A DNA stretch of 64,000 nucleotides from IMG/VR virus record IMGVR_UViG_3300037067_019204, positions 97,312 to 161,311 of that record; one strand, given 5' to 3'. Position numbers and translations under genes: made by a program. Source of the DNA: a virus. Lineage: Duplodnaviria; Caudoviricetes. Shown in pieces: positions 22,864 to 53,473 of this stretch. The notes under the pieces were generated by a model. It searched no databases and had not been told where the DNA came from. It saw nothing but the letters and a program-made list of their open reading frames with translations. Position 1 is the first letter of the stretch, and every line of letters starts with the position of its first letter.

Positions 22864-23082
22864 TTATTTTATTTCTGGTAAATAACAAGAACATTTATCT
22901 AAGTCTAATCGAGTTAAACTTCTTATATGACCTTTTAAAATATGATTAGGATCATTAACACTAGTAATAATACATGCTATGCGACTATTTGGGTGGTGTC
23001 TTCCAAAGAAGGATGAATCTGAAGTATGCCTTGTACTATAGGGACACCACGGTGTGCAACTAACAAATTGTATTATCTTCAT
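22864..23082 (-). CDS. Small Cys-rich 'KII-CxxxC' family protein
   Basis: MKIIQFVSCTPWCPY. Confidence 0.7.
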   Translation of the reverse strand: MKIIQFVSCTPWCPYSTRHTSDSSFFGRHHPNSRIACIITSVNDPNHILKGHIRSLTRLDLDKCSCYLPEIK

Positions 23083-23395
23083 TTAAAATTCCTTATAATC
23101 ATAATATACACCACAATTGGGACAAACTGGTTCACATGGAACATAAGTATGACAAAACTTACACCATCGTCCGTGTTCAGGAGAAGCATAATAAGTCATA
23201 GTCTGTCTAACTAATTTTTCTTTTTCAGCATCACTTATTGCATTTGGATTAGGCACTAATACTTTCTTTCTTTTGCTCTTTGAAAATATAGATTTAACCC
23301 AGACTGTGATAGCAGATACTATGATAATTATTGTTGTAAAGTTTATTAATTTTTTTAAAAGACCATCTTCTTTTTGCATATTTTACCTTTAAAGA

Positions 23396-23602
23396 TTAAT
23401 CATATTTTAAAACTTTTAAATGACATTTTTTAGTAAACATTGTGTGTTTCCAGTAATCATTATGGGGATATAAATTACACACATCACAATTAGAAATAGA
23501 AAAAGCTACACCGTGTGCATATAGTTGTATATCTGATGTAGCAACACTTAAAAAAGGACACCAAGAAGGACACTTATCTTCTATTTTTATTATTTTACTC
23601 AT
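23396..23602 (-). CDS. Small Cys-rich 'KII-CxxxC' family protein
   Basis: MSKIIKIEDKCPSWCPF. Confidence 0.75.
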   Translation of the reverse strand: MSKIIKIEDKCPSWCPFLSVATSDIQLYAHGVAFSISNCDVCNLYPHNDYWKHTMFTKKCHLKVLKYD

Positions 23603-23622
23603 TTATTTATACTATTTTGGAT

Positions 23623-23835
23623 TTAAAAATCCTCTAACTTTTTTAATACACATTTACGACTATATAAACAAATTTCAAACCAATCATATTGGTCTTTTGT
23701 ATAAAGAAAATTACCAACAGAATGACAATGTAGTGAACCCCCACTTCCATTAAGCATACTATATCTATGCAGATTATGATGCATTTCTTGACACCACGGA
23801 GGACATCTATTTTCTATTCTTATTATCTTGCTCAT
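23623..23835 (-). CDS. Small Cys-rich 'KII-CxxxC' family protein
   Basis: MSKIIRIENRCPPWC. Confidence 0.75.
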   Translation of the reverse strand: MSKIIRIENRCPPWCQEMHHNLHRYSMLNGSGGSLHCHSVGNFLYTKDQYDWFEICLYSRKCVLKKLEDF

Positions 23836-23838
23836 TTG

Positions 23839-24039
23839 TTATTTAAATATACAACCTCTTGTTGCAAATGCCCTATCAAACCAATTATAACCATCATCTA
23901 TATAGAGAAGCCAGTTAATCTTATTACAGCATAGTGTTCCTCCTGCTGGATTATTTATTGTATTCTCAGAATGATCTAAATGACCTTTAAGTATACACCA
24001 AGGAGGACACTTTTCTTTTATTTTTATTATTTTACTCAT
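23839..24039 (-). CDS. Small Cys-rich 'KII-CxxxC' family protein
   Basis: MSKIIKIKEKCPPWC. Confidence 0.75.
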   Translation of the reverse strand: MSKIIKIKEKCPPWCILKGHLDHSENTINNPAGGTLCCNKINWLLYIDDGYNWFDRAFATRGCIFK

Positions 24040-24257
24040 TTGTTTTTTTTGGTTTGTTGTTTAAATACACACTCTTTGTCTGAAAATGATCTTATAAACC
24101 AATCCTCATAATCATCTATATAAAGATTAATTCCGGTTAAGTCACAACACAATGATCCTCCTGCTGGGTTATCTCTTATTTCTCTAAAATGATTTCGATG
24201 GCCTCTGAATTTACACCACGCAGGACAAATAATATCCGTCTTTATTATCTTACTCAT
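24036..24257 (-). CDS. Small Cys-rich 'KII-CxxxC' family protein
   Basis: MSKIIKTDIICPAWC. Confidence 0.75.
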   Translation of the reverse strand: MSKIIKTDIICPAWCKFRGHRNHFREIRDNPAGGSLCCDLTGINLYIDDYEDWFIRSFSDKECVFKQQTKKNK

Positions 24258-24465
24258 TTATATACCCAAAGACACAATTGGGGCGAGTAAATGAAGTTTC
24301 AAACCAATCACCCTCTTGACAATTTTTATATAAATATAAACTTGTTTTATTACATATCAATGAACCTTCAACAGGGTTTTCTGGTATACGTAAATCATGC
24401 CCCTCATGACTTTTATATACACACCATGCTGGGCAGATAGTGGTTGCTTTTATTATTTTACCCAT
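24250..24465 (-). CDS. Small Cys-rich 'KII-CxxxC' family protein
   Basis: MGKIIKATTICPAWC. Confidence 0.75.
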   Translation of the reverse strand: MGKIIKATTICPAWCVYKSHEGHDLRIPENPVEGSLICNKTSLYLYKNCQEGDWFETSFTRPNCVFGYINE

Positions 24466-24473
24466 GCTTTATT

Positions 24474-24713
24474 TCACACTTCATATATTCTACAAGTCCT
24501 ATCTGTATCACTTACATTATGTTGTATTTTATAACACTCCTTGTAAGAATCCTTTAACCAAAAAGGACTAAATAATATTAAACCTGTTTTCTCACAACAC
24601 ATATTCACATTATCAACATGGTTCTCACATGAATATCGTTGTGCTCTATAATGGCCCACACGTCTGTATGGGCATAATGGAGTACATTCTGTCAAAACTA
24701 TTATTTTACTCAT
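24474..24713 (-). CDS. Small Cys-rich 'KII-CxxxC' family protein
   Basis: MSKIIVLTECTPLCPY. Confidence 0.75.
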   Translation of the reverse strand: MSKIIVLTECTPLCPYRRVGHYRAQRYSCENHVDNVNMCCEKTGLILFSPFWLKDSYKECYKIQHNVSDTDRTCRIYEV

Positions 24714-24931
24714 TTTTTTATATAAATATTCCTCTCACTAAAAATACAGGACTCATCTTTAAATGAAATTGTAAACCAATTACTTCTTCCTTCTACATAT
24801 AAATAATAACCTGTTTTATTACAATGAATAGAACCCCCCACCACACTTTCTATAATATTATTATTATGACTATTATGGCTTCTTCTTTTGCACCATGCGG
24901 GGCATTCTTGTACTTGTATTATCTTTGACAT
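24710..24931 (-). CDS. Small Cys-rich 'KII-CxxxC' family protein
   Basis: MSKIIQVQECPAWC. Confidence 0.75.
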   Translation of the reverse strand: MSKIIQVQECPAWCKRRSHNSHNNNIIESVVGGSIHCNKTGYYLYVEGRSNWFTISFKDESCIFSERNIYIKK

Positions 24932-25408: not shown

Positions 25409-25436
25409 TATCGGCATATCCTTTGTTAATCTTTAG
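25409..25436 (-). promoter_or_regulatory. Sigma28-type promoter
   Basis: CTAAAG...TGCCGATAT. Confidence 0.7.
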
Positions 25437-27392: not shown

Positions 27393-27704
27393 TTATGATG
27401 GCATATGGAATAAATGCACTACTACAATAGCAAAAAAAATTGAGAATAGTATTGAACAAATTATTCCAATACAAGGATAAAGAGCATCACTTTCTTTTAA
27501 CCTAATATAATTTCTCTTTATCTTTTCTTTAACTGTTTCCTTAATTATTTTTAAAGGACAATCTATTGGAAAATTACCAATTTTAGTACCAAACATACCT
27601 GAATGTCTTCTACAAAAAATACTATATCCTTCGATTGTGTGGTAGACACCACAACAGTGGGGACAAAATATTTCACATTGATGTAGTCTATATATTTTCG
27701 TCAT
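27393..27704 (-). CDS. 'KII-CxxxC' family protein with C-terminal TM helix
   Basis: MTKIYRLHQCEIFCPHC...FPIDCPLK plus hydrophobic tail. Confidence 0.65.
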   Translation of the reverse strand: MTKIYRLHQCEIFCPHCCGVYHTIEGYSIFCRRHSGMFGTKIGNFPIDCPLKIIKETVKEKIKRNYIRLKESDALYPCIGIICSILFSIFFAIVVVHLFHMPS

Positions 27705-27897
27705 ACTTACTTTTCTTTGTGCTTTCATCTTTTAATGGACAAAATCTGGGAAACACGCCTGCTTTTGTAGTAAGATGAATATGAATAAGCTCATATGTTG
27801 CCCGACAACCTTTTTCTTCATTTCTTTGAGTACCCCACGCTTTTTCAAAATATGGGCAATGTGGTCCACAATTTTTTATTTTTAAAATTTTTGACAT
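27688..27897 (-). CDS. Small Cys-rich 'KII-CxxxC' family protein
   Basis: MSKILKIKNCGPHCPY...FPRFCPLK. Confidence 0.75.
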   Translation of the reverse strand: MSKILKIKNCGPHCPYFEKAWGTQRNEEKGCRATYELIHIHLTTKAGVFPRFCPLKDESTKKSKYDENI

Positions 27898-27901: not shown

Positions 27902-28183
27902 CTAATCCATTACTTTCAAAGGGCAATCGTTTGGAAAAACACTACCACTGCCCGTAATATGTATATAATCACGCATAAGCCTACATGAGTATGGTGGGAA
28001 AGTTATTAATCCCATAGAACGATAGTGGGATGAATACGATCTTTTAAAATTAGGGCAAGAAGGATCACACTTGTTAATTCTTAATATTTTTGTATAAGGT
28101 TTAGCTTCTGTTACTCTAATAGATGTATATTCATCCCACGTATAACCATATTTTTCATTCGTAGCATACCAAGACATAGCCAA
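27902..28183 (-). CDS. 'KII-CxxxC' family protein with N-terminal extension
   Basis: TKILRINKCDPSCPNF...FPNDCPLK. Confidence 0.7.
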   Translation of the reverse strand: MAMSWYATNEKYGYTWDEYTSIRVTEAKPYTKILRINKCDPSCPNFKRSYSSHYRSMGLITFPPYSCRLMRDYIHITGSGSVFPNDCPLKVMD

Positions 28184-28195: not shown

Positions 28196-28435
28196 TTATA
28201 TCCCGCGCTCTGTCACAGGACGTTCAGTTGGTTTATCTTTTTCCTTTTTAAGGCTTTCACTGTCTTCCAGTGGACACCAATTGGGGAAATTTTTAACCAT
28301 AGTTGCGGTTGCTATAACCTTATTTTCTTCGGGGGCAGAAGGATGGTCACAATAAGCACCTTCGTCTACACAGCAACCTTCCTGAAAGAAGGGGCAATTA
28401 TTATCACAACGAGAAAGTTCAAGTATTCTTACCAT
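28196..28435 (-). CDS. Small Cys-rich 'KII-CxxxC' family protein
   Basis: MVRILELSRCDNNCPFF...FPNWCPLE. Confidence 0.7.
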   Translation of the reverse strand: MVRILELSRCDNNCPFFQEGCCVDEGAYCDHPSAPEENKVIATATMVKNFPNWCPLEDSESLKKEKDKPTERPVTERGI

Positions 28436-28467: not shown

Positions 28468-28495
28468 TATCGACATTTTTTCCTAAAAACTTTAA
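28468..28495 (-). promoter_or_regulatory. Sigma28-type promoter
   Basis: TAAAGTTT...TGTCGATAA. Confidence 0.65.
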
Positions 28496-28505: not shown

Positions 28506-29243
28506 TTATATATTCTTTTTTCTTACTTTATAGTTTTTAACTATATAGTCAGATATTGCGTTTTCATACTTTTTACGAGTTAAGGTTCTCATGCCGGGAG
28601 CCGAATTGACCTCAAATATGCACAATGCCCCATTTGCACAAACACCCACATCTACTGCCCCAAAAACAAGACCCAGACATTGAACTGATTTGACAATGGT
28701 TCTGCATTGAGCCGCAGTAAATGTTTTTTTGACAGGCATTTCCATATATTTGTAATTGGAAAGATTTTTTATCCAGCTTTCTCTGTGGCCGGGACGAAGT
28801 GTTTTTTTATCTACATGAAATATACTGTCACCAATTACATGACACCTGTATTCGTCTTCGCATTCCACAAATTCTTCAAAGTATTGCTCTTTATTAGGAG
28901 CAATTCGGCATTCTTTTTCAAGAAGTTGCATTCCCTCTCCTCTTGAATGTCTTACACGTTTAACTACTTGTGGGTAAGACGGAAAAAGTTCCATTGAAAA
29001 ATCAGGTGACGGTATTTTGCTTTTTTTAAATATTGTTTTCATTGTCAGTTTGTTATGACAATTTGATATTCCTTTATTGGTATTAAAGGATATGTCTGTT
29101 GTTTTTTCAGGAGCTTCACCAAAATACACATTCACTCTTTTAGAAAAAGAAGAGAAGTGAAAATTTTGGTGAGACTCATGGTGACTATGTACCATAAGGC
29201 GGTGGAATGTTATCGGGGTTTTGGGTTTCGCTTTTTTTTCCAT
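28506..29243 (-). CDS. ATP-grasp (RimK-like) peptide ligase
   Basis: NKLTM, H.RGEG, EYRCHV, WIKN, GLVFGAVD, FEVNSAPG. Confidence 0.85.
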   Translation of the reverse strand: MEKKAKPKTPITFHRLMVHSHHESHQNFHFSSFSKRVNVYFGEAPEKTTDISFNTNKGISNCHNKLTMKTIFKKSKIPSPDFSMELFPSYPQVVKRVRHSRGEGMQLLEKECRIAPNKEQYFEEFVECEDEYRCHVIGDSIFHVDKKTLRPGHRESWIKNLSNYKYMEMPVKKTFTAAQCRTIVKSVQCLGLVFGAVDVGVCANGALCIFEVNSAPGMRTLTRKKYENAISDYIVKNYKVRKKNI

Positions 29244-29707
29244 TTGTTTATCCTTTACATATAAAATAAATACAGACTGCCCAAATTATTATTAGTAATA
29301 AAGCTCTGGGTAGAGTGTGTATAAGATTTATTACTCCATCTACTATCCCAGAAAACACAGCATCTTTTTTTGATATTAAAAGCAGAGTACTATCTTCATT
29401 CGTCTTTTTTAAAGATGTTCTTTTGTATTTCATTTAATTTTTCCTGCACAAGAATCCTTACTGGTGTAGTATACTTTCTAAAAACTCCCTTTACCTTTTC
29501 TGATTCTGTGCCTTGCCAACTTTGCATATTTTTATATGCAATAAGTAATTGTTTTTTTATTTCTTTATCGCCCCCTATAATATCAGCAAGGAGAAGAGTC
29601 GAACCATCCAGAGCAAGCTGTACTGCAAGATGATCACACTCTTTTCTGGCAATAGATATTGCCCATTTCAAGTCCTTTTCGTTTAGTATCATATGTACCT
29701 TCCTGTA

Positions 29708-30070
29708 TCATACAGCCCCTCTTGTTTGTTTTTGTTGATATTCTTTTTTTATTATAGTTAATACCTCTTTCCATTTTTTGTTAAATTCTTCATCGTGCTT
29801 CCCCGGATATACCTTATGTTTCAATAATATATGAGCCGTCTCATGTGCTAAAGCGTTTTGAACCATGAAAAGAGATTTAATTTCATACGCATTCAAAAGA
29901 AAGTTTGCACTTTTTTTATTGTAAACACAAGCTGACATGCTTACTTCATCAGGAGAAGTGCTAGTAAAAGAATGTGTAGTAAGAGTAATATCTATTTTTC
30001 TTTTACATAGTCTTTCCAGAATGATTTGGAGTCTATGCCATTTTATTTTAATAGGTGCTTGTTCATTCAT
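29708..30070 (-). CDS. Small HExxH metallopeptidase-like protein
   Basis: LAHETAH...HDEEF. Confidence 0.6.
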   Translation of the reverse strand: MNEQAPIKIKWHRLQIILERLCKRKIDITLTTHSFTSTSPDEVSMSACVYNKKSANFLLNAYEIKSLFMVQNALAHETAHILLKHKVYPGKHDEEFNKKWKEVLTIIKKEYQQKQTRGAV

Positions 30071-30825
30071 ATCAAGCTATCCTTTGATCTTCCCCCCCAG
30101 CGATTGGTTATAGGAATAACCGCAGAACCACCCCCGCTACTTCCTCTTGCTGTTACAGGTAGGTCTGCTTTTTCTGATTCTTCCTTTTTGTAATCACTTC
30201 CATAATTGCACCCATAATCAGAATCATAGTCATAATATTTGTATGATCTGCCATACCCATATTTTTTATAACTGTTATTTGAAAAGAGGATGCCGTCACA
30301 TACTTCAAAGTCCTTCGGAGACCTTACCCAGACTTTATCAGGAGAAAAAATTATGAACTTTCCTGAAAGCTTTGTGAGAACCTTTAGCCCCAGTTGTGAC
30401 ACAAGCATTGCCGCCATTCGGGAATCACTCATTTCTCCTTCAGGGAAAAACTTGTTGGCTATAAAGAAGGGCATTTCATAGTCTTCCCAACGTGTAATAC
30501 ATCCATTATGGAATAGAACTGAAGACCTCCCACTATAAGAAAGTTTAAGGGGGCTTTTGGTTGAAACAAGAAATGGGTGTGTAAGTTCCTGAGTTTTCCC
30601 ACCCGCTGTTCCTATACGGAAGTGAACAACATGCAGATGACCTTCCAACTTAAGCTTTTGATATGTATCCCATGCTGTCTCAACTTTCATTAAACCTTTT
30701 ATGTAATGAAGATTACCGGATTTCTGGTACGCAATTCCTACCCCATCACGGTTTCTGTCAAAACAATTTTCGAATTCGTCTTTTGTAAGACACCTTCCTG
30801 TTTGGCTATATGCAATCACACACAT
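30067..30825 (-). CDS. Class II (Ntn) glutamine amidotransferase
   Basis: N-terminal MC, NRDGVG, HFRIGT, HPF, FHNG, SDSR. Confidence 0.85.
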   Translation of the reverse strand: MCVIAYSQTGRCLTKDEFENCFDRNRDGVGIAYQKSGNLHYIKGLMKVETAWDTYQKLKLEGHLHVVHFRIGTAGGKTQELTHPFLVSTKSPLKLSYSGRSSVLFHNGCITRWEDYEMPFFIANKFFPEGEMSDSRMAAMLVSQLGLKVLTKLSGKFIIFSPDKVWVRSPKDFEVCDGILFSNNSYKKYGYGRSYKYYDYDSDYGCNYGSDYKKEESEKADLPVTARGSSGGGSAVIPITNRWGGRSKDSLI

Positions 30826-30849
30826 AATATTATCCTCCGTTATTTTATA

Positions 30850-32553
30850 TTAAAGAGCTTCGTGAATTTTTCTTTCGATAAAGGCTACTACTGTTGATGT
30901 AACAATTTCCCTGTCTGCTGAAGAAAGTTCACCTGCTCTGTAAGGACGAGCAAGCCCAAGATACACAGTACGCCCGTTACCATTTTCTGAATTGGGATGA
31001 AGAATCTGTTCAAAACCGGGAATAGCCATTCCTGCTACAGACCTTCCACGTTTTCCACTGAGACCATAAATCGTAACGGAAATGGGGTTTTCTTTATTTT
31101 CTATTTTGATTTCCCGAATCCGTCTTTCAAGATCAGAACGGACATCTTCGTTCCAATCATCATGGATTTCCAAGATGAATTTAGGTGCATGTGCGGGTTT
31201 TTTGGCCTTAGAGGTTTTTATGTTCTTGGCCACTGTACGATTCCACGCTACAGCAACATTCATACTGTAATCCATAGTACGGCGAAAGTCGTTGATGTAC
31301 CCCATATAATACTGAGCTTGCTGTTCAGTGAGACCAATCTGAGTAATCAATTCTTCCTGAGTGGTCTCATTCCTGTTATCAGCAATGTTAAACTCAAAAC
31401 CACTGAGATAACGGGTAACAAGATTCTGAACAATCTTTGCCGTTACGAACAGCATTTTGGGATGTGCAAAAACTGCCGCAGGAGGAGTCCTGTATTCAAA
31501 CCCATAGGATTTGTTTTCCAGATTCCCCGGATGATTATATCCCCCCCTCGCTTTTCCTGACATTTTCATTGTGGGGATTCCAACAAAGTAATCAAGAAGT
31601 TTAATAAGTTGAGGAGTCACATTGACCCTTTTTCCAAAACCAATGTGGATGTGGCCACCTATCGGGTGATGATCACCAATTGCACTAAAGACTGCATTGG
31701 CATCCACTTCCCTAAACAGAATCGCCATGTTCTTTACAAGTTCAGCGGGAGAGTTTGCTTTGTCGGGACGAAATTCAACCTGACAACGATTCCCATCAAG
31801 GCCAACTTTTTTGTCCCTTGAAGTTGCGGAACTTCCTACTTCAATTCCTTTGTAAGGGCAAGTGGTGGAATCACGGAAAGTAAGAACATTACCTTTATGG
31901 TCAAGAAGTTCAAACTCAGGGTCAGCACCGAGGGTCACAGAAATTTTGGGCATTTTCGGTTTCACTTCTTTTTTCTTTTTCTTGTCTACAGAGGTATCCC
32001 TTCTGTGAAGAAGATTGTTCTCCACCAAATTTTCAAGAACGGATTTCAGAATACGGCAACCGGCAGACGAGTGTGTAAGATCACAAAGGACCACCGTATT
32101 AAGTTCAGGAAGAACATAACCAAGATGTTTGGTCGGCACATCCTTACGATTATACTTTATCCGTAACTCTATAATCTGTACCGGCGCATCAGAGTTCAAA
32201 GTCACATTGGACAGTGTTGACCTATCAAACAGGCTATCCCTTTGATATTCGTATGCGATTGTTTCTGATTCCTTTTCTTCCGGTGTATCCTTAAAAGAAA
32301 TAAAGTGTTTCTTTCCGTTACGAACCGGATGCGGAATTGTAAGCATGGCATACAAGTACAGCATGTTTGGCTCGATGGGAACCGGAGAGGGTGTGTTTAT
32401 CAGATGGTTTTTAATCTCACGGAAATAGGGAGTTGCCCATTCCGCACCATAGTTTTGTAGAAATTCAGGAAGATGCTCCTGAGAATCCCTTCCACCCGTA
32501 TCGGGATTTGAAAAGAATTTTTTTGATTGGTCGATGTCAAGTTTAATCTTCAT
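30850..32553 (-). CDS. phiEco32-like COOH-NH2 ligase (amidoligase)
   Basis: LGADPEFEL, VGLDG, EFRP, GGHIHIG, GFEYRTPP. Confidence 0.85.
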   Translation of the reverse strand: MKIKLDIDQSKKFFSNPDTGGRDSQEHLPEFLQNYGAEWATPYFREIKNHLINTPSPVPIEPNMLYLYAMLTIPHPVRNGKKHFISFKDTPEEKESETIAYEYQRDSLFDRSTLSNVTLNSDAPVQIIELRIKYNRKDVPTKHLGYVLPELNTVVLCDLTHSSAGCRILKSVLENLVENNLLHRRDTSVDKKKKKEVKPKMPKISVTLGADPEFELLDHKGNVLTFRDSTTCPYKGIEVGSSATSRDKKVGLDGNRCQVEFRPDKANSPAELVKNMAILFREVDANAVFSAIGDHHPIGGHIHIGFGKRVNVTPQLIKLLDYFVGIPTMKMSGKARGGYNHPGNLENKSYGFEYRTPPAAVFAHPKMLFVTAKIVQNLVTRYLSGFEFNIADNRNETTQEELITQIGLTEQQAQYYMGYINDFRRTMDYSMNVAVAWNRTVAKNIKTSKAKKPAHAPKFILEIHDDWNEDVRSDLERRIREIKIENKENPISVTIYGLSGKRGRSVAGMAIPGFEQILHPNSENGNGRTVYLGLARPYRAGELSSADREIVTSTVVAFIERKIHEAL

Positions 32554-32673
32554 TTGTTTTCTCCCTTTTTATAAATATTATAGTTATAATCTCTAGAAAG
32601 TTCATCAACTTAAAAAAATTAATTTAAAAGCTGATGAACCATGTACAGGTTATAGTTCTACAATGTGATACGA

Positions 32674-33294
32674 TTAGCTCTTTTTGCCCTTCTTCGCATC
32701 TTTTGTGACCATCTGCCGGGAGTCTTTCTTGACTACCTGCTTCGAGTCCTTTTTGACGATCTTCTTTTCCGATGCTTTCTTTACAGGCTTTTTGTTGGCT
32801 TTCTTGACATCCTGATATTCTTTCAGGTTGTCAGCTTTTTCCAGCCGGGATTTAATATCAGCAACAAGGGCATCCACCATTGCCACCGACATTGCGTTCT
32901 TTACTGAATACGGAAGACCGTAGTAAAGAGCCGACCGGGTGTTAATAGAGCCACGCTTGGGGTGATTGATCTGCTTGAAGCCATCACAATCAAACCCGGA
33001 AACGACCGCACCCCTTGAATTTTTCAGTGAGTAGAACACCACACGCACAGGGGTCTTAAGGCCGAATCTTTTAACCATATTCATGAGAACTTCCCGAACC
33101 TGTTTCGGGAGCAGGGCTTTACCATGAAACGTCGGGTAAATGGAGGCGATATTGTTCTCAACCCTCCGTATAGCCTCTACCTTATCGGACACTTTTTTGG
33201 ACAGAGAATCTTCTTTGTCCAGATTTGATGCAACCACATCAGCCAGAGATTCAAACTCTTTGCGGGTGTAGCTCATTTCAACATGTTTTACCAT
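32674..33294 (-). CDS. Stand-alone protein sharing the amidoligase C-terminal domain
   Basis: FYSLKNSRGAVVSG..CDGFKQINHP...GLPY matches the C-termini of 30850..32553 and 35832..37022. Confidence 0.7.
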   Translation of the reverse strand: MVKHVEMSYTRKEFESLADVVASNLDKEDSLSKKVSDKVEAIRRVENNIASIYPTFHGKALLPKQVREVLMNMVKRFGLKTPVRVVFYSLKNSRGAVVSGFDCDGFKQINHPKRGSINTRSALYYGLPYSVKNAMSVAMVDALVADIKSRLEKADNLKEYQDVKKANKKPVKKASEKKIVKKDSKQVVKKDSRQMVTKDAKKGKKS

Positions 33295-33350
33295 AGACAC
33301 CACCTTCCTTTTATTTAATCGGCATACGCCGTAGAACACTATATTATCTT

Positions 33351-33377
33351 TATCGTCCTATTCTCTAAAAACTTTAG
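33351..33377 (-). promoter_or_regulatory. Sigma28-type promoter
   Basis: CTAAAGTTT...GGACGATAA. Confidence 0.65.
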
Positions 33378-34969
33378 CATTTTTTTATTTAAAATCTTTT
33401 ATTTTTAATTTTTTCAATCCTGTGATTTTGAATATCTCATATGGAAAATTTGACAATTCAGCATGTTTTATCTGATCTATAAAAGTCAATATATCAGAGA
33501 ATGCCAAATGAATAACCCCACCTGCTGACCCATTTTTTTTCCCAAACATTAAAATATATTTTGGTGTGTTACTATTCTCTTTCGAAGATAAGGTTTGTTC
33601 GTCCATACTCGGTTCCTTTATTATCTATTTTTTCAAAATCCCAACAAGTAATTTCTCTACTTTTTGATACAGGAATATTAAATTGTGTTCCATGTATACA
33701 ATTATAATTTCTGCCTTTATTAGTACGAAGTGCTCTGTCAAAATTGTCGTAAACAGAAACCATTTCTTTTTCGAATAAGGTTTTATCTTCCATTGAATTT
33801 CGGCAACAAGTATAAAGCATAAGAACATACTTTCCCCGTTCAAGATTATTATTTCGAAAAATGGAATTTAATCTATCTCTAGTATTAGGTATTCTACCAA
33901 AGTTCATTTAAAATTCTTTTCCTTTTTATATCTTTTATATTTTGTTATTCCCTTATGTGACAAAAGTAATATTAAGAACATAAATCCTCCCGGCACAATA
34001 GTGGCTATCATAAGTAATGTAATTAAATTTCTATGAATTGTTTCCTTTTTCATATTTATACTTGGGCTTGTGTTGCTTTATCTATTTCTGATTCAACATA
34101 GCTTTTCAATTCATCGTAATCTTTCCCCCCAATATATATCCCTTTCCCATATTCTATAGCCCAAAATGTTTTTCGGATTACATCATCCGATGTTAATTCT
34201 GTTCGTAATGAAGCATGAAAACTTCTATTGTTAAAATCTACATCAAATATTAAAACTTCACTTTTAAGTTTAATGCTCATTGCAAGCTCCTTTTCTTTCT
34301 TCTCCAATTCTTTTTTAAAAGAATCTATAATATCCTTACTAATAGTTGGATTAGTTAAGGGATAACAATAAGCCCCTGATATACTCTTAAAAGAAACCGT
34401 ATACTCTTCTTTTATAACATCAGGTTCATTTATTCTTATTTCCCTGAGTTTAACCACAGAGTAGTTACTTACTTTATAATGGAAATCAAAGTCCAGTCGT
34501 TCTCTTTTTATAACTATTTTATCCTCTTTCATATTGATTCTCCTGAATTTTTTAAGAGGAATGAGTTTGAATAATTCCACCCCAAATGAATAGATGTAAT
34601 TATGGTATGCCTCCCCCATATAATACTTAATACCCATTTATCAAACACTTTGTGTTTATAAAAGAATACTGCTATATTAGCATCACTACTCTTACAAGGA
34701 TAAAAAGGTATTGAAACAATATAAAACCAATAGCAAGGTGAATGGTTTCCTTTTTCTCTTTTAAGAAACTTCCATTTATTCATACCTAAATCCTTACATT
34801 CTTTTTGTTGTGTTGGCATCCTCTTCCAAACTGGGATAATCTTCTGCCCAATTTGAGATATACTTTTCTTTCCTATGATAAATCTTTTTTGGATTTACTA
34901 TATGGAAATTAAAAGTGTCATATTGATAACGCTTTTTAGATGATATGGGATGTTTTTTTTCTTTTTCCA

Positions 34970-35779: not shown

Positions 35780-35807
35780 GATTTTTACCTCTTTGTTTTA
35801 TTATTTT

Positions 35808-40868: not shown

Positions 40869-40896
40869 TATCGGTAAGTTCTTTATAAAACTTTAG
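40869..40896 (-). promoter_or_regulatory. Sigma28-type promoter
   Basis: CTAAAGTTT...TACCGATAA. Confidence 0.7.
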
Positions 40897-41119
40897 CATT
40901 TTTTATAGTAAGAAAAGCTTTTTTACAAGGCTTTTCGTTTTTAGCTTTATCTAACCCATGAATACGATGTGTTGGGTTTTCTAACCAAAAATTACAACAT
41001 GTAGATTCATTAAAGCAAAGAGCTTCATCTGCTGTACCTTGCTGTCTATCTATACTTCCATATGGTCTAAACCGTGGGCAATTTGGCCCACACTCTTTTA
41101 TTTCTATGATCTTTGACAT
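40883..41119 (-). CDS. Small Cys-rich 'KII-CxxxC' family protein
   Basis: MSKIIEIKECGPNCPRF. Confidence 0.75.
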   Translation of the reverse strand: MSKIIEIKECGPNCPRFRPYGSIDRQQGTADEALCFNESTCCNFWLENPTHRIHGLDKAKNEKPCKKAFLTIKNAKVL

Positions 41120-41123
41120 AAAT

Positions 41124-41408
41124 TTATATTTTAAGAATAGCTATCCTTCTATAAAAACAACAGTCAATAGGAAATGAATTTTTCATTATAGCAGTTGTTT
41201 CAGAATGAGAACCACTAGAATGAGACCAGAAAGGTGAACGAGAGGGTGAACGAAATCTTTTTATCCAAAAATTATTTCCACCACCACTTATACTAGTTTC
41301 ACTAAAACAAGCAATACCTTCTGGGGAAGATTGATTTACTATGTACCCGTATGGTTTAAAAAAAGGACAAAATGGCCCACATTCTTTTATTTCTATGATC
41401 TTTGACAT
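41124..41408 (-). CDS. Small Cys-rich 'KII-CxxxC' family protein
   Basis: MSKIIEIKECGPFCPFF. Confidence 0.75.
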   Translation of the reverse strand: MSKIIEIKECGPFCPFFKPYGYIVNQSSPEGIACFSETSISGGGNNFWIKRFRSPSRSPFWSHSSGSHSETTAIMKNSFPIDCCFYRRIAILKI

Positions 41409-42599: not shown

Positions 42600-42821
42600 T
42601 TATTTTGTTAATATTTTTAAATGACAGCCCAAAGGAAAGCCATATCTGTTTCTTAAAACACCAACTCTAGGATTATGTATCCAAAAATCTTCAATTAAGC
42701 TATTTTGATAATAGCAAACTAATACATTATTATGGTGGTGGTCTTGACTCCACATTCCCCCCGCAGGGGTGAATCTTGGGCATAAGTTACAGCAATTATT
42801 TAATAAGATTATTTTACTCAT
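42600..42821 (-). CDS. Small Cys-rich 'KII-CxxxC' family protein
   Basis: MSKIILLNNCCNLCPRF. Confidence 0.75.
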   Translation of the reverse strand: MSKIILLNNCCNLCPRFTPAGGMWSQDHHHNNVLVCYYQNSLIEDFWIHNPRVGVLRNRYGFPLGCHLKILTK

Positions 42822-43030
42822 GCTTTTAAAAAACAATTATGTTGGAATCTTTTCTCTCTATTAGAAAGACGAGACATATTATCTATATACATTCCTGAAA
42901 ATCCATAAGTATCCCGTACCAAACAAGCTATTCTTGTTATACCATGACTTACATCTTCGTTCCCATCATTATATCTTGTACTATATGGGCATAGAGGAGA
43001 GCATTCTTTTAATAAGATTATTTTACTCAT
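42818..43030 (-). CDS. Small Cys-rich 'KII-CxxxC' family protein
   Basis: MSKIILLKECSPLCPY. Confidence 0.75.
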   Translation of the reverse strand: MSKIILLKECSPLCPYSTRYNDGNEDVSHGITRIACLVRDTYGFSGMYIDNMSRLSNREKRFQHNCFLKA

Positions 43031-44269: not shown

Positions 44270-44296
44270 TATCGGAATAACTGGTGAAAACTTTAA
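44270..44296 (-). promoter_or_regulatory. Sigma28-type promoter
   Basis: TAAAGTTT...TTCCGATAA. Confidence 0.7.
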
Positions 44297-44505
44297 TCAT
44301 TTTTTATTAATAATTTTTTTAAATGGCAATCGAATGGGAAGTATTCATATGTAGAATCATCAAACCAAAAGTTTATTTTATTATCTAGTATACTATAACA
44401 AAGATTCCTTAAGGTATAACGTACCCCTTGTGGCCACACCACTCCCGGAGAGGAGAAACGTGGGCATAATGGGCAACATTTATTTATCTTTATTATCTTT
44501 CCCAT
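44293..44505 (-). CDS. Small Cys-rich 'KII-CxxxC' family protein
   Basis: MGKIIKINKCCPLCPRF. Confidence 0.75.
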   Translation of the reverse strand: MGKIIKINKCCPLCPRFSSPGVVWPQGVRYTLRNLCYSILDNKINFWFDDSTYEYFPFDCHLKKLLIKND

Positions 44506-44743
44506 ATGCCTTTAAGAAACAACCCACATATCTGGCCTCTTCAAATCTCTGTTGTTTATTTACTCCTCTATCACCAGAATCTATACTACCACGTAAAAAT
44601 GTTCCATCATAAAGATTTTCTCCTTTAAGTCTCAGACAAGCTAATTGTGTTACTCCATGTCTCATTCCTTCAAGAAGTAAATTATGCCTTAAGTAATGAG
44701 GACAAAGGGCAGAACATTCTCTTATTAAGAGTATCTTACTCAT
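44480..44743 (-). CDS. Small Cys-rich 'KII-CxxxC' family protein
   Basis: MSKILLIRECSALCPHY. Confidence 0.75.
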   Translation of the reverse strand: MSKILLIRECSALCPHYLRHNLLLEGMRHGVTQLACLRLKGENLYDGTFLRGSIDSGDRGVNKQQRFEEARYVGCFLKAYGKDNKDK

Positions 44744-44966
44744 ATGCTTTTAAGAAACAACTAGTTTCAAACATCCGTTGTTTATTTATGCCTCTGCTAG
44801 TCCAAATTCTGCCACTTAAGTATGTCCCATCATAAGGAGCGTTTCCCTTAAGTCTTAGACAGGCTAATTGTGTTGTCCCATGAATTGTCCCTTCAAAGAG
44901 TAAGTTATGCCTTAAGCAATGAGGACAAAGAGGGCCGCACTCATTTATTAAAAGTATCTTGCCCAT
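44736..44966 (-). CDS. Small Cys-rich 'KII-CxxxC' family protein, recent duplicate of 44480..44743
   Basis: MGKILLINECGPLCPHC; shares TQLACLRLKG, YDGT and RG.NKQ with its neighbour. Confidence 0.75.
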   Translation of the reverse strand: MGKILLINECGPLCPHCLRHNLLFEGTIHGTTQLACLRLKGNAPYDGTYLSGRIWTSRGINKQRMFETSCFLKAYE

Positions 44967-45309: not shown

Positions 45310-45337
45310 TATCGGTAGAGAACACAGAAAACTTTAG
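45310..45337 (-). promoter_or_regulatory. Sigma28-type promoter
   Basis: CTAAAGTTT...TACCGATAT. Confidence 0.7.
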
Positions 45338-45740: not shown

Positions 45741-46032
45741 ATAAGCAATTGTATTGGCTTTCTTATTAGCAATAAGATTGGCATATATAATAGCACTTAA
45801 ATTAGCCATTGTATTGGCTATTCTTATTGCTATTTATTTTGCTATTTTTTTAGCACTTACTTTGGCTATTTTTTTGGCCAAAAGTGGGTCGATGTCCATG
45901 CCGAAGATCATCTTTGGTTTACGATTACCAATACTATTTCCCAGCTTTGCACTTGGCAGGTGGCCAATTACAACCCCCAAAGGTTATACTAAAGGCCAAT
46001 CCTATGGCCAAGAAAATGGCCAATCCTATGGC
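45741..46032. repeat. 12 bp-period degenerate tandem array (iteron-like)
   Basis: GC dinucleotide exactly every 12 bp from 45745 to 45877 (12 units) and from 45995 to 46031 (4 units), context about TTRGCYA. Confidence 0.8.
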
Positions 46033-46656: not shown

Positions 46657-47628
46657 GTTTTTATTTAACTGCTTCTCCTGCTAATTTCATAAACGCATCT
46701 TTCAGATGTATCTAAAGGAGTGATGGTCCAATCTGATGCACGAGAGCAAGGCTCTGATTCTAAAGCCAAACCAAGTGCAACAGACTCACATTCTGCGGAA
46801 ATTATTAAATGAACATCATCAAAGGCTCCCCTTTTATACCAATAATAATTACAGCTATATACGTTCATTTTTTAATTGCCCCTGTATAATTTTATTTAAT
46901 TACCTTTAATATAGAGTTTATAAAGTGCGGCATCTGCTTTCAGAACACTCATAACCCACTCAATACACCTGTGACAAAAGAATGGGATAAAGCTCTTGCA
47001 GTAGCCCACAGCTAACCTTGCAGACTCCTAACCCCGCACTTTATAAATTCTATATTCAAAGAGCCTGATATTAAACGTAGGCAATATGCTCCGTCTAGAG
47101 AGTTGCATTAAATCTCAATGTATACCAAGCTCTTTGAGTATAGCTTTTATAAGACATCATTAAAAACAACTATAGTGTTAGTTTAAAATGATAATGTTAT
47201 TCAGACTTTGTTTCTTTATCTTTATCAGGTTCATACAAATCTTCAAATTCTCCATGCTCATCCCTGCAAACCTGACAGCGAAAATCATTCTTGCAATAAT
47301 TATTAAAATTATGGCAATCTATACAGAACGCAACTGAACATATTTATACCACATAATGCTTGATTTTATTACATCCCAATTTATTCCTTCACTTGAATCA
47401 TGATGTTGTTTCAAATTATGAAGTATTTCTCTGGCCGCTTTTTTAGTCACATGATACTTCTTGCCTAAACCCTTGGCAAAGTAATACACATCATCAGTAC
47501 TCCATACTATATGGATTGTATCAGGGTTTTTCAGGATTTTTATAGCCTCTTTAGTATCCCCCTTTTCTAGGGCTGTAATGGCTCTATTTATTGTGTATGA
47601 CATTTTTCTTTACCCTTCATACCTTACT

Positions 47629-48195: not shown

Positions 48196-48387
48196 TTATT
48201 CTTTTCGTAGTGGGCAGTTTCTTTTTAGCCTATTTAAATTATAAATAAATACCCATTTCCAATGTGTCTTGCTGTAAAGAGCAAGGCATGCAACATGTTC
48301 TTTCCAATATAATCTTGTTTGGGTATCTACTAATATTTTAACATTAGGACAATCACTGCATCTATGTAGTTTAACTATTTTGCTCAT
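48196..48387 (-). CDS. Small Cys-rich 'KII' family protein
   Basis: MSKIVKLHRCSDCPN...NCPLR. Confidence 0.7.
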   Translation of the reverse strand: MSKIVKLHRCSDCPNVKILVDTQTRLYWKEHVACLALYSKTHWKWVFIYNLNRLKRNCPLRKE

Positions 48388-48562
48388 GTTTTTTTAAAGG
48401 GCAAGCAGGTTTAAATTGGTCTCTTTGCCTAATACGAGACGTGGATAGTGGATTAGAAAAACGTAGTAACTTACTACAATATATACACTCATAATCATGC
48501 CCATTACTTGCTGTTATTGTATGAGTACATTCACAACAACTATATATTTTAATTATCTTCAT
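48371..48562 (-). CDS. Small Cys-rich 'KII' family protein
   Basis: MKIIKIYSCCECTH...ACPLK. Confidence 0.7.
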   Translation of the reverse strand: MKIIKIYSCCECTHTITASNGHDYECIYCSKLLRFSNPLSTSRIRQRDQFKPACPLKKHEQNS

Positions 48563-48758
48563 TTTTGCCTATATTTTCTTTCTCTTGGGGCAAAGTGCAT
48601 CTATTTAAAAAGGTTGCTTTATGCCAATTTACAGAAACCCCCGGAATTAAATAATATCCTGTGTTAGGGCATTGCATATTATAATCTTCACTGTTATTTT
48701 GTTCATGTATTGAATGATAACAAAGACTACAATCAGATATTCTTATTATCTTGCTCAT
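48549..48758 (-). CDS. Small Cys-rich 'KII' family protein
   Basis: MSKIIRISDCSLCYH. Confidence 0.7.
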   Translation of the reverse strand: MSKIIRISDCSLCYHSIHEQNNSEDYNMQCPNTGYYLIPGVSVNWHKATFLNRCTLPQEKENIGKNEDN

Positions 48759-48958
48759 TTTTTACTTTTTACATATTGTTGTTCTGTTTGATATTTACAA
48801 TGTCTATCATAGATTACTTTAAACCAATCTCGGTAATTATCAGTAAATAAATTCCAGCAACCACAAGTAAGGCTCCCTAATCTGTGTTGGTTTCTTTGAT
48901 TATTTTTTCTATGTTTACAAAAACCTTCACATTTATTTATTTTTATTATCTTACTCAT
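48755..48958 (-). CDS. Small Cys-rich 'KII-CxxxC' family protein
   Basis: MSKIIKINKCEGFCKH. Confidence 0.75.
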   Translation of the reverse strand: MSKIIKINKCEGFCKHRKNNQRNQHRLGSLTCGCWNLFTDNYRDWFKVIYDRHCKYQTEQQYVKSKK

Positions 48959-49242
48959 AATAAAGTTTTTTTAACACGGGATAAAAACTTTTTTGCTTTG
49001 GTTATATGTATAGCTTTATATTCTTCTTTTGTCATGAAAGGGCATCTTTCCATGAAAGCTCTTTTGAACCAATTAGGTTCATGATCACGATGATATAAGT
49101 ACCAGTGTGCTTTAGTACAAAGTAGCACGGATTCATCTGTGCCATGAATACAATCAGTACGTTGGCCACCCTCTGGATTAGGGTCTGCAATTCGGTTTTT
49201 ACAAAAACCCTCACACTTTCGTATACGTATTATTTTGCTCAT
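48955..49242 (-). CDS. Small Cys-rich 'KII-CxxxC' family protein
   Basis: MSKIIRIRKCEGFCKN. Confidence 0.75.
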   Translation of the reverse strand: MSKIIRIRKCEGFCKNRIADPNPEGGQRTDCIHGTDESVLLCTKAHWYLYHRDHEPNWFKRAFMERCPFMTKEEYKAIHITKAKKFLSRVKKTLL

Positions 49243-49312: not shown

Positions 49313-49519
49313 TCATAATTCCTCTTTTAGTGTTTTATATGGGCATCTTTCTCTAAATGCTTTTGAAATCCAATAATCGCTATTTATAAACCAATGTGCC
49401 ATTTCACAATAAGCATGGTTATCACAATTGTTTATTGGACTTCCACCATAGAATATACTTTTTGTTATTATATGTTTACAAAATCCCTCACATTTTTCTA
49501 TCCTTATTATCTTACTCAT
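49313..49519 (-). CDS. Small Cys-rich 'KII-CxxxC' family protein
   Basis: MSKIIRIEKCEGFCKH. Confidence 0.75.
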   Translation of the reverse strand: MSKIIRIEKCEGFCKHIITKSIFYGGSPINNCDNHAYCEMAHWFINSDYWISKAFRERCPYKTLKEEL

Positions 49520-49526: not shown

Positions 49527-49554
49527 TATCGGAATAAATAAAAGAAAACTTTAA
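49527..49554 (-). promoter_or_regulatory. Sigma28-type promoter
   Basis: TAAAGTTTTCTTTTATTTATTCCGATA. Confidence 0.7.
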
Positions 49555-51363: not shown

Positions 51364-52017
51364 TGTGTCCTCCTTATTTAAATTAATTTATTCTGGGTAG
51401 TTTCCCATTGTTAAATGCGCTTTCACAGCGGCAATCTGTTGACGGGTATATTGCCGCAAATACTTGAAATGCTTACGAAGTTCATTCGCAGAGTACATAG
51501 AATATAATTCAATGATATACCTGTGGTCACTATTTATTTTGACTAACTTTTTCATTTCTCTTTTTCCCTTCATGTTCTTGCCTAGATTTTATCCATGTGG
51601 ATTTTCTTTTTTCTAATTCAGAAAAATCTATTTGGATTGGTGTCTCAAAAATTACTAGACGTTTATAATCAAAGATTATTTTTTTAAGTACACCACTTCG
51701 ATGTGCCTCAAAATAAGCTTTTGAGTAACAATCACCAATATGACTATAAATATATTCTCTTACTTTACTGAGTTTAAGTTGTTGAGTTTTAGGTAGCAAA
51801 GAGTTTATATCGTAGCAAGTAAATGCACAGCATGCTATATTCTTACAATCACTTCCTACTTCACAATAATGGGGCCAATGACAGGGTGTGCAACACCCAC
51901 CTTTGCAGACCTCGGAACAAAACTTACGAATACCTGAGTCAATCGTCCATTTATTGATTAATGCTAGAGCTTCGGTATAGGTTATTTGAGGCATAGTATT
52001 CTCCTTGTTTATTTATT

Positions 52018-52045
52018 CATCGGAATAATTATACAATAACTTTAG
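52018..52045 (-). promoter_or_regulatory. Sigma28-type promoter
   Basis: CTAAAGTT...TTCCGATGA. Confidence 0.65.
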
Positions 52046-52115
52046 CAAAAAAACCAGAAGATAAAATTAAGCATCTCAATTAAGAGATGCTTAGGTTCAT
52101 GTCTTGGTTTAATAT

Positions 52116-52517
52116 TTACAGGGAGGCTGTGGTAAATTGCGTAATGGGAATGGTATTGCCATTCTCGATTTCAGTGATAACAACAGAAGTGGGTGCTTTG
52201 GATTTATTCATCTTGAATGTATATTCTTCACCGGGTCGTACTTCAATGGAATTAACAATCTTTACACCGGGATATGCCACGGTAATAAACTTGTTATAAT
52301 CTCCATTTACCCTTACTGTGAACGATTGTACATCCCAATACTTGCCATCTTTTCCTGCAATGATGCTGGAGCAAATTGCCCCGGCGCAGGACTGAATAGT
52401 CACTTCAACGTTTCCCTTGTCTTTGGTGAAGAAACTGGAAATGTTTTTTTCTTCTGAGCAAGCACTCCCCATGCCAATAATGGCAAGGGCAAGGATGAGA
52501 ATTGAGAGTCTTTTCAT
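52116..52517 (-). CDS. Putative lipoprotein
   Basis: AAGGAGG RBS; MKRLSILILALAIIGMGSAC; hairpin at 52068-52093 downstream. Confidence 0.65.
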   Translation of the reverse strand: MKRLSILILALAIIGMGSACSEEKNISSFFTKDKGNVEVTIQSCAGAICSSIIAGKDGKYWDVQSFTVRVNGDYNKFITVAYPGVKIVNSIEVRPGEEYTFKMNKSKAPTSVVITEIENGNTIPITQFTTASL

Positions 52518-52560
52518 ACGGTGAGCCTCCTTGTTTGGTTTAATATTTTATAAGCATTGC

Positions 52561-52818
52561 TTATTTTTTGCTGAATAATTTTAACTTGCATCTTTTCTCA
52601 AAATCTTCTTTTAAGTATTCTCCAAAAGAACAAAGGTCAATTTTTGTGCATATAGCATGAGACTCTATTTTTGTAGTAGTATCTATGCCAGATTTCCCAT
52701 AAAAATGTTCTTCAAGATCAGAAATTCTTTGAGGAGCAGATGATTCCATGCGTGATTGATTATCACTAATATAAGGACACCATGCTGGGCATCTGTCATG
52801 TATTTTTATTATCTTCAA
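52561..52818 (-). CDS. Small Cys-rich 'KII-CxxxC' family protein
   Basis: MKIIKIHDRCPAWCPY. Confidence 0.7.
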   Translation of the reverse strand: MKIIKIHDRCPAWCPYISDNQSRMESSAPQRISDLEEHFYGKSGIDTTTKIESHAICTKIDLCSFGEYLKEDFEKRCKLKLFSKK

Positions 52819-53032
52819 TGAAGTTATCCTTTCTGGGATATAAGTTACAATGATTAAAATTATTTTCTCTATAGTCTATTTCATTAAAAATGTATACATG
52901 TTCAGACAAACATGCTAAAAGTGATCTAATACCTTTAAATTGAATATGAGAACATTGCTGATAGCTGTAAGGTTCGATTCCTCTTTTCCTGCACCATGCT
53001 GGGCAATTATGTAATTGTATTATCTTTGACAT
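52796..53032 (-). CDS. Small Cys-rich 'KII-CxxxC' family protein
   Basis: MSKIIQLHNCPAWC. Confidence 0.75.
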   Translation of the reverse strand: MSKIIQLHNCPAWCRKRGIEPYSYQQCSHIQFKGIRSLLACLSEHVYIFNEIDYRENNFNHCNLYPRKDNFIEDNKNT

Positions 53033-53253
53033 TATTTTTCTATTATTCTTAAGCAACAATAGTGCGCGAATATATATCTTGTAGAACAGCATGTTTCCTC
53101 TGCTATTGATAATGACCGTGGTAAATAATGTGCTATTTTACGACACGCTAAATTAGACTTAAAAAGTCTATGAACAGAATCAGTGTGTTCATGTGCCCAA
53201 GCATATGGGCAATAAGCAGGACAATCATCTTTTATTTTTATTATTTTACTCAT
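53032..53253 (-). CDS. Small Cys-rich 'KII-CxxxC' family protein
   Basis: MSKIIKIKDDCPAYCPY. Confidence 0.75.
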   Translation of the reverse strand: MSKIIKIKDDCPAYCPYAWAHEHTDSVHRLFKSNLACRKIAHYLPRSLSIAEETCCSTRYIFAHYCCLRIIEK

Positions 53254-53473
53254 CTATTTTAGGTGTAAGAAAACAATATTGAAATATATTATCCCGTAAT
53301 ACAGCATTATTTGCCCTACAATCAGGAGGCATTCGTTGCACATAATACAAAGCTGTTTTTCTGCATAATACTAAACATCCATACGTATTACTATAATTAA
53401 AATCAAGTTGATGTCCTTCTTGTGCAAAAGGACAAAACGGTATACATTCATTTATTTTTATTATTTTACTCAT
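53246..53473 (-). CDS. Small Cys-rich 'KII-CxxxC' family protein
   Basis: MSKIIKINECIPFCPF. Confidence 0.75.
   Translation of the reverse strand: MSKIIKINECIPFCPFAQEGHQLDFNYSNTYGCLVLCRKTALYYVQRMPPDCRANNAVLRDNIFQYCFLTPKIDE

Follow-up and report, generated by a model that had tools for sequence, protein, structure and literature searches.

The final 64 kb of the tailed-virus contig IMGVR_UViG_3300037067_019204, a single sequence of 161,311 bp with 31% GC, carry 31 genes that are confirmed as one real family of paralogs and whose predicted products share a core of four Cys residues (Cys4) that would fit metal binding. This whole stretch of 64,000 nucleotides (genome positions 97,312 to 161,311) is called the window in the following, and positions refer to it unless stated otherwise. 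A regular expression (M-x-K/R-I/L-...C-x(1-4)-C) applied to the open reading frames (ORFs) gave 28-30 seeds for a hidden Markov model (HMM), with which all 1,809 stop-to-stop frames of the whole genome were then searched. The search matched 31 ORFs with E-values from 1e-21 to 2e-7, which without exception are encoded on the minus strand and lie within 22864-53485; the E-value of the next match was 0.017. As such, the original prediction of about 31 paralogs of a Cys-rich scaffold is borne out by the genome-wide search. The family is by far the largest of the genome, accounting for 31 of ~286 ORFs (~11%) and for 4.4% of the DNA, with the next largest paralog family having three members.

The 31 genes (22864-53473) encode proteins of 63-103 residues. 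In the alignment of all members (A1), exactly four columns are invariant, all of them Cys (C1 to C4), M1, K3 and I4 are near-invariant, and the mean column identity is 17%. C1 lies at residue 9-11 in every member and is separated from C2 by three residues in 28 cases and by two residues in the other three, followed by a C2-C3 gap of 14-42 residues (median 21), a C3-C4 gap of 17-48 residues (median 24) and a tail of 3-54 residues, so that the claimed wide variation of the segments between the Cys residues is readily confirmed. Other parts of the proposed signature hold for some members only. The C-terminal FPxxC(P)L motif, which had been described as shared, is present as FPxxC in nine members and absent from the rest (FPxxCPL is retained by eight or nine, CP occurs in nine and C-x-L in 21), and its full canonical form survives only in the gene at 28196-28435 (FPNWCPLED). 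Likewise, the start that overlaps or abuts the upstream stop codon is found in 21 members and the N-terminus M[S/G]KI in 23, whereas the strict 5' DNA motif ATGAGYAARATAAT is limited to 13 of the 31. The isoelectric point (pI) exceeds 8 in 27 members (median 8.9), as opposed to the acidic canonical single-copy relatives described below (median 5.1), and His is twofold enriched in the window clade. The Cys4 core most likely holds one metal ion, for which Zn is our default guess and Fe is also possible. Scans of the window members against Pfam, PHROGs and NCBIfam returned nothing significant; one member had a single weak match to phrog_14146 at an E-value of 0.51. A PDB sequence search with the members gave no match, and a survey of the literature that included the motif strings found no described family of relevance.

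Based on substitution ratios, translational coupling and promoter motifs, these are 31 real, co-transcribed genes, which are predicted to encode small cytoplasmic proteins. A motif of the sigma-28/FliA type (TAAAGTTTT-N11-12-(C)CGAT(A/G)) is repeated across positions 20989-60024, and in the window the pattern TAAAGN{14,18}CGATR is matched 23 times where 1.1 matches would be expected by chance; the minus strand, which is the coding one, holds 22 of the 23. Reading of the intergenic sequences placed all arrays inside units headed by such a motif: on the minus strand, TAAAG-N-GCCGATA at 25409-25435 heads the operon of the 22.9-24.9 kb array and a motif at 28468-28494 heads the array at 27.4-28.4 kb, motifs at 43551 and at 45310-45336 head the arrays at 42.6-45.0 kb, and a motif at 49527-49553 heads the one at 48.2-49.5 kb. 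Scans for sigma-70-type promoters gave matches at chance level only. The array units may be expressed early by the host FliA or may depend on a phage sigma factor, since the phage encodes a sigma-like protein of its own (positions 1-653, plus strand; PF04542, E 3.8e-5; PF04545, E 0.02) together with one paralog. Ratios of nonsynonymous to synonymous substitutions (dN/dS, Nei-Gojobori) of 0.23-0.54 were obtained for pairs of paralogs as well as for members paired with their orthologs on a related contig, compared to 0.10-0.43 for flanking genes, all being rough values with dS near saturation. None of them points to neutral decay, and the genes are under purifying selection.

Close relatives of the family allowed us to estimate the age of the expansion. 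A profile of the 31 members searched against 1.84 billion representatives gave 48 matches, 21 of which were the window's own and 27 were metagenomic proteins with the same signature. One contig of 3.2 kb (L007; an identical copy, L006, comes from a Joint Genome Institute (JGI) sample) is syntenic with the window at 22.9-26.2 kb and has five members between the same flanking genes that enclose seven in the window; the flanking proteins are 58-79% identical, compared to at most 50% for the member pairs. A second contig of 19.7 kb (L012, GCA_043956535.1) is syntenic with the window at 47-61 kb and likewise has ten members, the order of which relative to the genes for a ParB-like protein and a lipoprotein differs from that in the window. 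A JGI contig of 34 kb bears three relatives. In a maximum-likelihood tree of 62 members, built from 74 alignment columns, most deep forks are poorly supported, and we relied only on the interleaving of sequences and on the starred pairs of the tree. The copies of the window and of its relatives interleave, with 22 label changes, the same as with shuffled labels, and the tree contains many one-to-one pairs and few lineage-specific duplications such as 42818/44480/44736. Subfamily alignments further revealed invariant residues that are specific to single subfamilies, namely R19, H29, G46 and R54 in subfamily C and F17, G21, Q26, F46 and W47 in subfamily B. Because of the tree interleaving and these subfamily-specific residues, we consider the expansion to be mostly old and the copies to be individually conserved.

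This conclusion changes the picture of a recent, accordion-like expansion that had been put forward initially. The turnover of copies that a search for copy-number variation was expected to reveal is real but modest, with seven versus five members in one array. The two pairs that had been taken for recent duplicates are not very recent either, as 44480/44736 are 68% identical at the protein level with a dS of ~0.75, and 40883/41124 are 56% identical. Nor does the shared 5' DNA stand out as a substrate for recombination: the longest exact 5' matches between members measure 15-26 nt, AGY as well as TCA codons are used for Ser2, and the conserved peptide MSKIIKI in an AT-rich genome explains the similarity. 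Such DNA may still favour unequal crossing-over, yet according to the tree most copies had arisen before the lineage separated from its relatives. Between orthologs, identity drops from 67% in the N-terminal module (Cys excluded) to 38% in loop 1, 32% in loop 2 and 29% in the tail, which makes the segments between the Cys residues the fast-evolving parts of these proteins. The comparison of loops and scaffold that had been suggested thus came out in part as anticipated: the rate at which the loops diverge is about double that of the N-terminal module and of the flanking genes, with dN/dS remaining below 1. Diversity-generating retroelement targets were also considered and are rejected for the 161-kb sequence, in which no match to reverse transcriptase (RVT_1) was found; with the contig being ~65% complete, this absence is not absolute.

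A search beyond the close relatives places the family in a wider superfamily. For this purpose a profile of 16 sequences (A2) was built from the canonical-looking window members with FPxxCPL ends and distant matches, along with a mixed alignment of 52 sequences (A3). A2 retrieves proteins of 47-137 residues with the consensus MKIIKIxxCxxCPY...C...(I/F)P(E/D)WCPLED, at E-values down to 1e-17 against 5.8 billion sequences, all of them annotated as 'hypothetical' and none with a Pfam domain. The four Cys residues are invariant and in the same order in A1, A2 and A3, distant relatives included, and the window-only HMM A1 in turn matches canonical proteins in the loci L008 (8.9e-10) and L025 (3.3e-9). 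Fourteen of the 52 A3 members, which the output does not specify, match phrog_29585 with a best E-value of 6e-7; the phrog_29585 HMM itself had no match when the phage genome was searched in six frames. The first impression that no described family has this signature at this copy number needs correction in so far as relatives are found by profile and are partly catalogued as phrog_29585. A possible and very divergent 32nd copy lies outside the window at genome positions 17970-18152 on the minus strand (MKIISLNDCKLCDH...C...C), with an E-value of 0.017 for the A1 HMM and of 1.7e-4 for the A3 HMM.

Canonical members occur at one to three copies in 19 IMG/VR loci with GC contents of 26-57%, and are found in phage contigs of ~40 kb within early and replication modules, with no conserved neighbours beyond DnaB-type replication genes. 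Members are also encoded by the Methanoculleus virus L4768/Blf4 (gp02, YP_010772340; L014:298-549) and by a phage genome of 735 kb (LR756501.1, 688787-689068), each of which has one or two copies. A scan in which every prokaryotic species was represented by one genome returned 13 loci, eight of which are metagenome-assembled genomes (MAGs) of Asgard archaea. The Asgard ortholog has 73-78 residues (KKLIVVENCIECPYV...TIPDWCPLEDY), is 82-95% identical across the eight MAGs (L035-L038, L040, L043-L045) and is embedded in a conserved gene order of MFS transporter, nitroreductase, OYE-type FMN oxidoreductase, small gene, xylose-isomerase-like TIM barrel and class-V aminotransferase. It constitutes a conserved cellular branch of an otherwise viral family. 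The phrog_29585-like canonical proteins and the window family are alike in the N-terminal strand, the position of C1 at residue 9-11, the order of the four Cys residues and the size (47-125 residues). In contrast, the canonical proteins are acidic, have C-x2-C and a near-invariant PEWCPLED end and occur at one to three copies, whereas the window clade is basic, has C-x3-C in 28 of the 31 members, has mostly lost WCPLED and numbers 31 copies. By its profile matches, the window family is a basic and diverged branch of a widespread superfamily that is catalogued as a PHROG but uncharacterised. What is new is the 31-copy, diverged basic clade itself and the finding that members from phages, archaeal viruses and Asgard cells are linked.

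Within the window, the members fall into arrays and subfamilies, for which E-values of the family HMM are given in brackets; all genes are on the minus strand. The array at 22.9-24.9 kb comprises a gene of subfamily C (MKIIQFVSCTPWCPY...; 22864-23082, 1.3e-9) that groups with R7_2847, P0038 and P0041 in the tree, a member (MSKIIKIEDKCPSWCPF...) at 23396-23602 (2.9e-16) with the ortholog L007:2347-2553, and then genes of subfamily A, which is characterised by PxWC...GGSL-C...WF...C, at 23623-23835 (5.5e-19), 23839-24039 (1.2e-18), 24036-24257 (2.1e-19) and 24250-24465 (6.6e-18). It continues with a member at 24474-24713 (2e-15), the ortholog of which is L007:1941-2138, and with a further subfamily A gene at 24710-24931 (1.1e-21), which is the first sequence of A1. 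The array at 27.4-28.4 kb is largely canonical-like. It comprises 27393-27704 (FPIDCPL; 4.8e-13, A3 profile 1.3e-13) with a hydrophobic C-terminal extension, 27688-27897 (FPRFCPLKDE; 8.8e-17, A3 profile 8.2e-18), a member at 27902-28183 (1.7e-7, A3 profile 7.4e-12) that has an N-terminal extension of 30 residues in front of a family domain at 27902-28093, and the acidic 28196-28435 (1.5e-12), which is the first gene after the promoter motif and has a near-identical relative, P0018. Two more canonical-like genes are located at 37977-38219 (FPNFCPLE; 8.5e-16) and at 38939-39145 (FPFFCEL; 2.4e-9).

Subfamily B (CGPxCP.F.PYG...NFW...FPxxC) is represented by 40883-41119 (3.6e-12), which can be aligned at the DNA level with its neighbour 41124-41408 (1.4e-13; ortholog P0025) and the 3' end of which carries a promoter motif (40895-40869) preceding RtcB, as well as by 42600-42821 (2.6e-16) and 44293-44505 (5.1e-15). 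The genes of subfamily C at 42818-43030 (1.6e-16), 44480-44743 (1.6e-13) and 44736-44966 (2.4e-14) form one clade with a Shimodaira-Hasegawa-like approximate likelihood ratio test (SH-aLRT) support of 98, and dN/dS between the latter two is 0.29. In the array at 48.2-49.5 kb, two canonical-like genes with C-x2-C, namely 48196-48387 (CPLRKE; 2e-11) and 48371-48562 (ACPLKK; 3.2e-8; ortholog L012:12673-12891, SH-aLRT 95), are followed by a member at 48549-48758 (3.4e-17) and by the CEGFCK subfamily at 48755-48958 (2.2e-16), at 48955-49242 (6.9e-20), which has a long basic tail and groups with L012:12395-12676, and at 49313-49519 (3.5e-16), the first gene after the promoter motif. The last array, at 52.5-53.5 kb, holds a member with a TTG start and a long C2-C3 insert at 52561-52818 (2.3e-9, in two stretches), which is 63% identical to its ortholog L012:10268-10528, a member (CPAWCRKRGIEP...) at 52796-53032 (6.5e-18) that groups with L012:10001-10261 and L007:1514-1717, a member at 53032-53253 (2.5e-15) that groups with L012:9772-9996, and 53246-53473 (1.2e-17), the first gene of this array.

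From our point of view, these data are best explained by an old expansion of Cys4 mini-proteins that act as a metal-stabilised scaffold with target-binding loops, a reading that we favour tentatively and to which we would grant somewhat less than an even chance. An ancestral viral gene, usually present at one to three copies per virus, would have been duplicated many times in this phage lineage, most copies would have lost the acidic PEWCPLED tail and turned basic and His-enriched, and the family would then have split into at least six subfamilies, which each retain a particular set of loop residues. The drop of ortholog identity from the N-terminal module to the loops and tail is a pattern typical of such a scaffold with variable surfaces. 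The N-terminal strand (M-S/G-K-I-I/L) could together with the Cys4 site serve as a minimal metal-stabilised scaffold, the two long segments between the Cys residues and the tail could provide the specificity-bearing surfaces, and each subfamily might bind a different macromolecular target during infection, for instance in host takeover or counter-defence. Metal binding, the scaffold-loop architecture, target binding and the anti-defence role are all properties that we infer. Large eukaryotic DNA viruses have multigene families as well, which offer a parallel to expanded families of mini-proteins. By analogy one could go further and imagine a standing repertoire of ~30 metal-stabilised mini-binders, each subfamily neutralising a different defence or takeover target, with a scaffold that many viruses of bacteria and archaea, as well as Asgard archaea, have in the form of a single gene; this would be the phage counterpart of the immune-evasion multigene families of eukaryotic viruses, a possibility that we find rather doubtful.

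Several observations weigh against the proposed binder function. In Pfam, PHROGs, NCBIfam and the PDB, the members match none of the characterised families of binders, anti-defence proteins or zinc fingers, the canonical relatives are neighboured by replication genes and not by defence-related genes, and the position of the Asgard ortholog beside flavin oxidoreductases hints at a housekeeping or redox role of the ancestral protein. With dN/dS below 1 throughout and dS saturated, the comparison gave no sign of positive selection on the loops. The suggested check for a common Zn-binding fold did not provide a confident fold: AlphaFold2 (AF2) reached a predicted local distance difference test (pLDDT) score of 64 with A1 (31 sequences; model of 24710-24931) and of 55 with A3 (52 sequences), and the model in the ESM Atlas has a pLDDT of 0.40. 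That the members share one fold and have one metal site is therefore an assumption. Foldseek against the PDB and VIA-align wide found no significant match for the better AF2 model, itself of low confidence, and the top matches below significance were zinc ribbons of the transcription and translation machinery. Look-ups in the ESM Atlas led to unnamed viral clusters only. A complex prediction for a subfamily C and a subfamily B member with two Zn ions, chosen because the gene order C-then-B recurs in two neighbouring transcription units, gave a score of 0.11 and a mark of 0.32 and has no bearing either way.

The genomic setting has to be considered before the alternatives are weighed. The IMG/VR record is without end repeats, its completeness is estimated at 65% by CheckV, and the contig also codes for a portal protein, a DNA polymerase, ribonucleotide reductase and SbcC-like proteins. 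The family-bearing part of the window consists of a single long block of minus-strand genes, most of them small, with auxiliary functions between them, including NAPRTase, NAD synthase, an isochorismatase-like protein, a Ser/Thr kinase, a PP2C-like phosphatase, RtcB, an SLT lytic transglycosylase and a ParB-like protein, and, as ligase genes, two phiEco32-type COOH-NH2 amidoligases, two class-II amidotransferases and an R2K ATP-grasp. The latter form a duplicated peptide-ligase block at 28506-37022 with the R2K ATP-grasp at 28506-29243, the class-II amidotransferase-like genes at 30067-30825 and 34970-35779, the amidoligases at 30850-32553 and 35832-37022, and a related ORF of 221 residues at 32674-33339. 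We regard the surroundings of the arrays as an auxiliary, host-interaction region, which is consistent with host-directed roles of the family by association only. When the amidoligase and the DNA polymerase were used as single-protein queries against IMG/VR, close relatives were not found, and a tblastn search of named phages with the amidoligase and one canonical member gave no match.

Some further features of the region deserve mention in their own right. Ser/Thr kinase, NAPRTase, NAD synthase, PP2C-like phosphatase and the isochorismatase-like protein, which may be a nicotinamidase, lie together at 15507-22847, a composition that suggests a putative phage-encoded NAD salvage route; an ORF of 249 residues in this cluster (21267-22016) has no Pfam match. 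Three two-copy families of small proteins (38437-38664/42257-42541, 38676-38942/39372-39644 and 43030-43476/46171-46656) are interleaved with the arrays, and the region has therefore grown partly by segmental duplication. Two long, GC-richer intergenic stretches of the small-gene region, at 39146-39371 and 46869-47187 on the minus strand, fold far better than shuffled sequences (z -4.05 and -5.20, respectively) and have no Rfam match, which makes them candidate structured phage RNAs. A short tandem repeat with a period of 12 nt is located between two operons at 45814-46032, and an ORF of 1004 residues on the plus strand (2812-5826) combines an intein-type Hint domain with a LAGLIDADG homing-endonuclease domain.

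Among the alternatives to a set of target-binding scaffolds, it is conceivable, if unlikely, that the members are nucleic-acid-binding zinc proteins, acting as regulators of transcription or translation or as DNA/RNA chaperones, each with its own site. Small Cys4 modules often bind nucleic acids, and the basic character of most members, as opposed to the acidic canonical relatives, would suit such a function. However, small proteins outside the family have a similar pI in this AT-rich genome (median 8.8, Mann-Whitney p 0.78), a helix-turn-helix or known DNA-binding signature is absent, and 31 regulators exceed what a 161-kb phage would plausibly need. The zinc ribbons that came up as the best fold matches would also fit, but all fold matches remain below significance. 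The classical Cys4 zinc ribbons of the TFIIB N-terminus, Rpb9 and ribosomal S27 are likewise small, beta-rich Cys4 modules, but they have two CxxC knuckles, whereas the window family has one knuckle and two lone Cys residues, each 14-48 residues after the previous Cys. A different metal chemistry is considerably less probable, namely that the members are rubredoxin-like iron redox proteins or metal buffers that alter the redox or metal balance of the host. The resemblance to rubredoxins lies in an N-terminal strand that precedes a CxxC knuckle (K-I-x-x-C-x-x-C-P-Y as compared to K-Y-x-C-x-x-C-G-Y), in (I/L)P-D-(D)-W-x-C-P near the C-terminus, where the canonical IP(E/D)WCPLED recalls the second knuckle LPDDWVCPVCG, and in four Cys ligands within 50-70 residues; the twofold increase of His in the window clade and the Asgard ortholog, which lies beside, and divergent from, the genes for an OYE-type FMN oxidoreductase and a nitroreductase, would also fit. 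Yet the family has CPLED in place of CPxCG, so the second knuckle is without its second Cys and the fourth ligand would have to come from the isolated Cys in the centre, most window members are without WCPL, and there is no obvious rationale for 31 diverged electron carriers. We rejected membership in the rubredoxin family (PF00301), as there is one knuckle only, no PF00301 match at E<=1, and an hhalign probability of 0.6% against six rubredoxins.

Slightly less credible still is the idea that the members are substrates or precursors of the neighbouring peptide ligases, either as a library of the kind known from ribosomally synthesised and post-translationally modified peptides (RiPPs) or as recipients of peptide tags. 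In precursor libraries of the prochlorosin type, dozens of short paralogs keep the same N-terminal part and vary in the remainder, and the window members are likewise conserved at the N-terminus and variable beyond it. Arrays are located on both sides of the ligase block: the one at 27.4-28.4 kb starts 70 bp downstream of the gene for the R2K ATP-grasp, and the member at 37977-38219 is ~1 kb from an amidoligase gene. For the R2K.2 family and for phage amidoligases, proteins are the predicted targets (PMC4431377). On the other hand, a distance of 5-20 kb separates most arrays from the ligases, no such ligases are present near the canonical relatives in 22 other viral loci or in L012, and the conserved N-terminal part covers only ~15 residues while the invariant Cys residues are spread over the whole protein. 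Unlike prochlorosins, the members, with their 63-103 residues, look like folded domains and not like leader-core peptides. No radical SAM enzyme was found in the 161 kb and no other RiPP maturase was seen, and the assignment as a RiPP precursor family was rejected for this reason and for the unlinked relatives and the span of the Cys residues. The least probable explanation, in our opinion, is that of dispensable duplicates that decay or drift neutrally in a recombination-prone region. Copy number and order do vary between relatives, the mean column identity is low, and some members have odd ends, such as the TTG start of 52561, the extensions of 27902 and 27393 and the loss of the FPxxC segment in 40883. 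All 31 members nevertheless keep an open frame and the four Cys residues at dN/dS values below 0.55, orthologs are kept in relatives whose flanking proteins are only ~45-80% identical, and subfamily residues are conserved.

Overall, it is unusual that one family makes up about one ninth of the genes of a large phage, and this points to a function under strong and long-term selection. The structure and the interaction partner of a single member would annotate hundreds of viral genes that are currently 'hypothetical'. If the members indeed are target-specific binders, the arrays would represent a natural library of 7-10 kDa metal-stabilised inhibitors of bacterial proteins.

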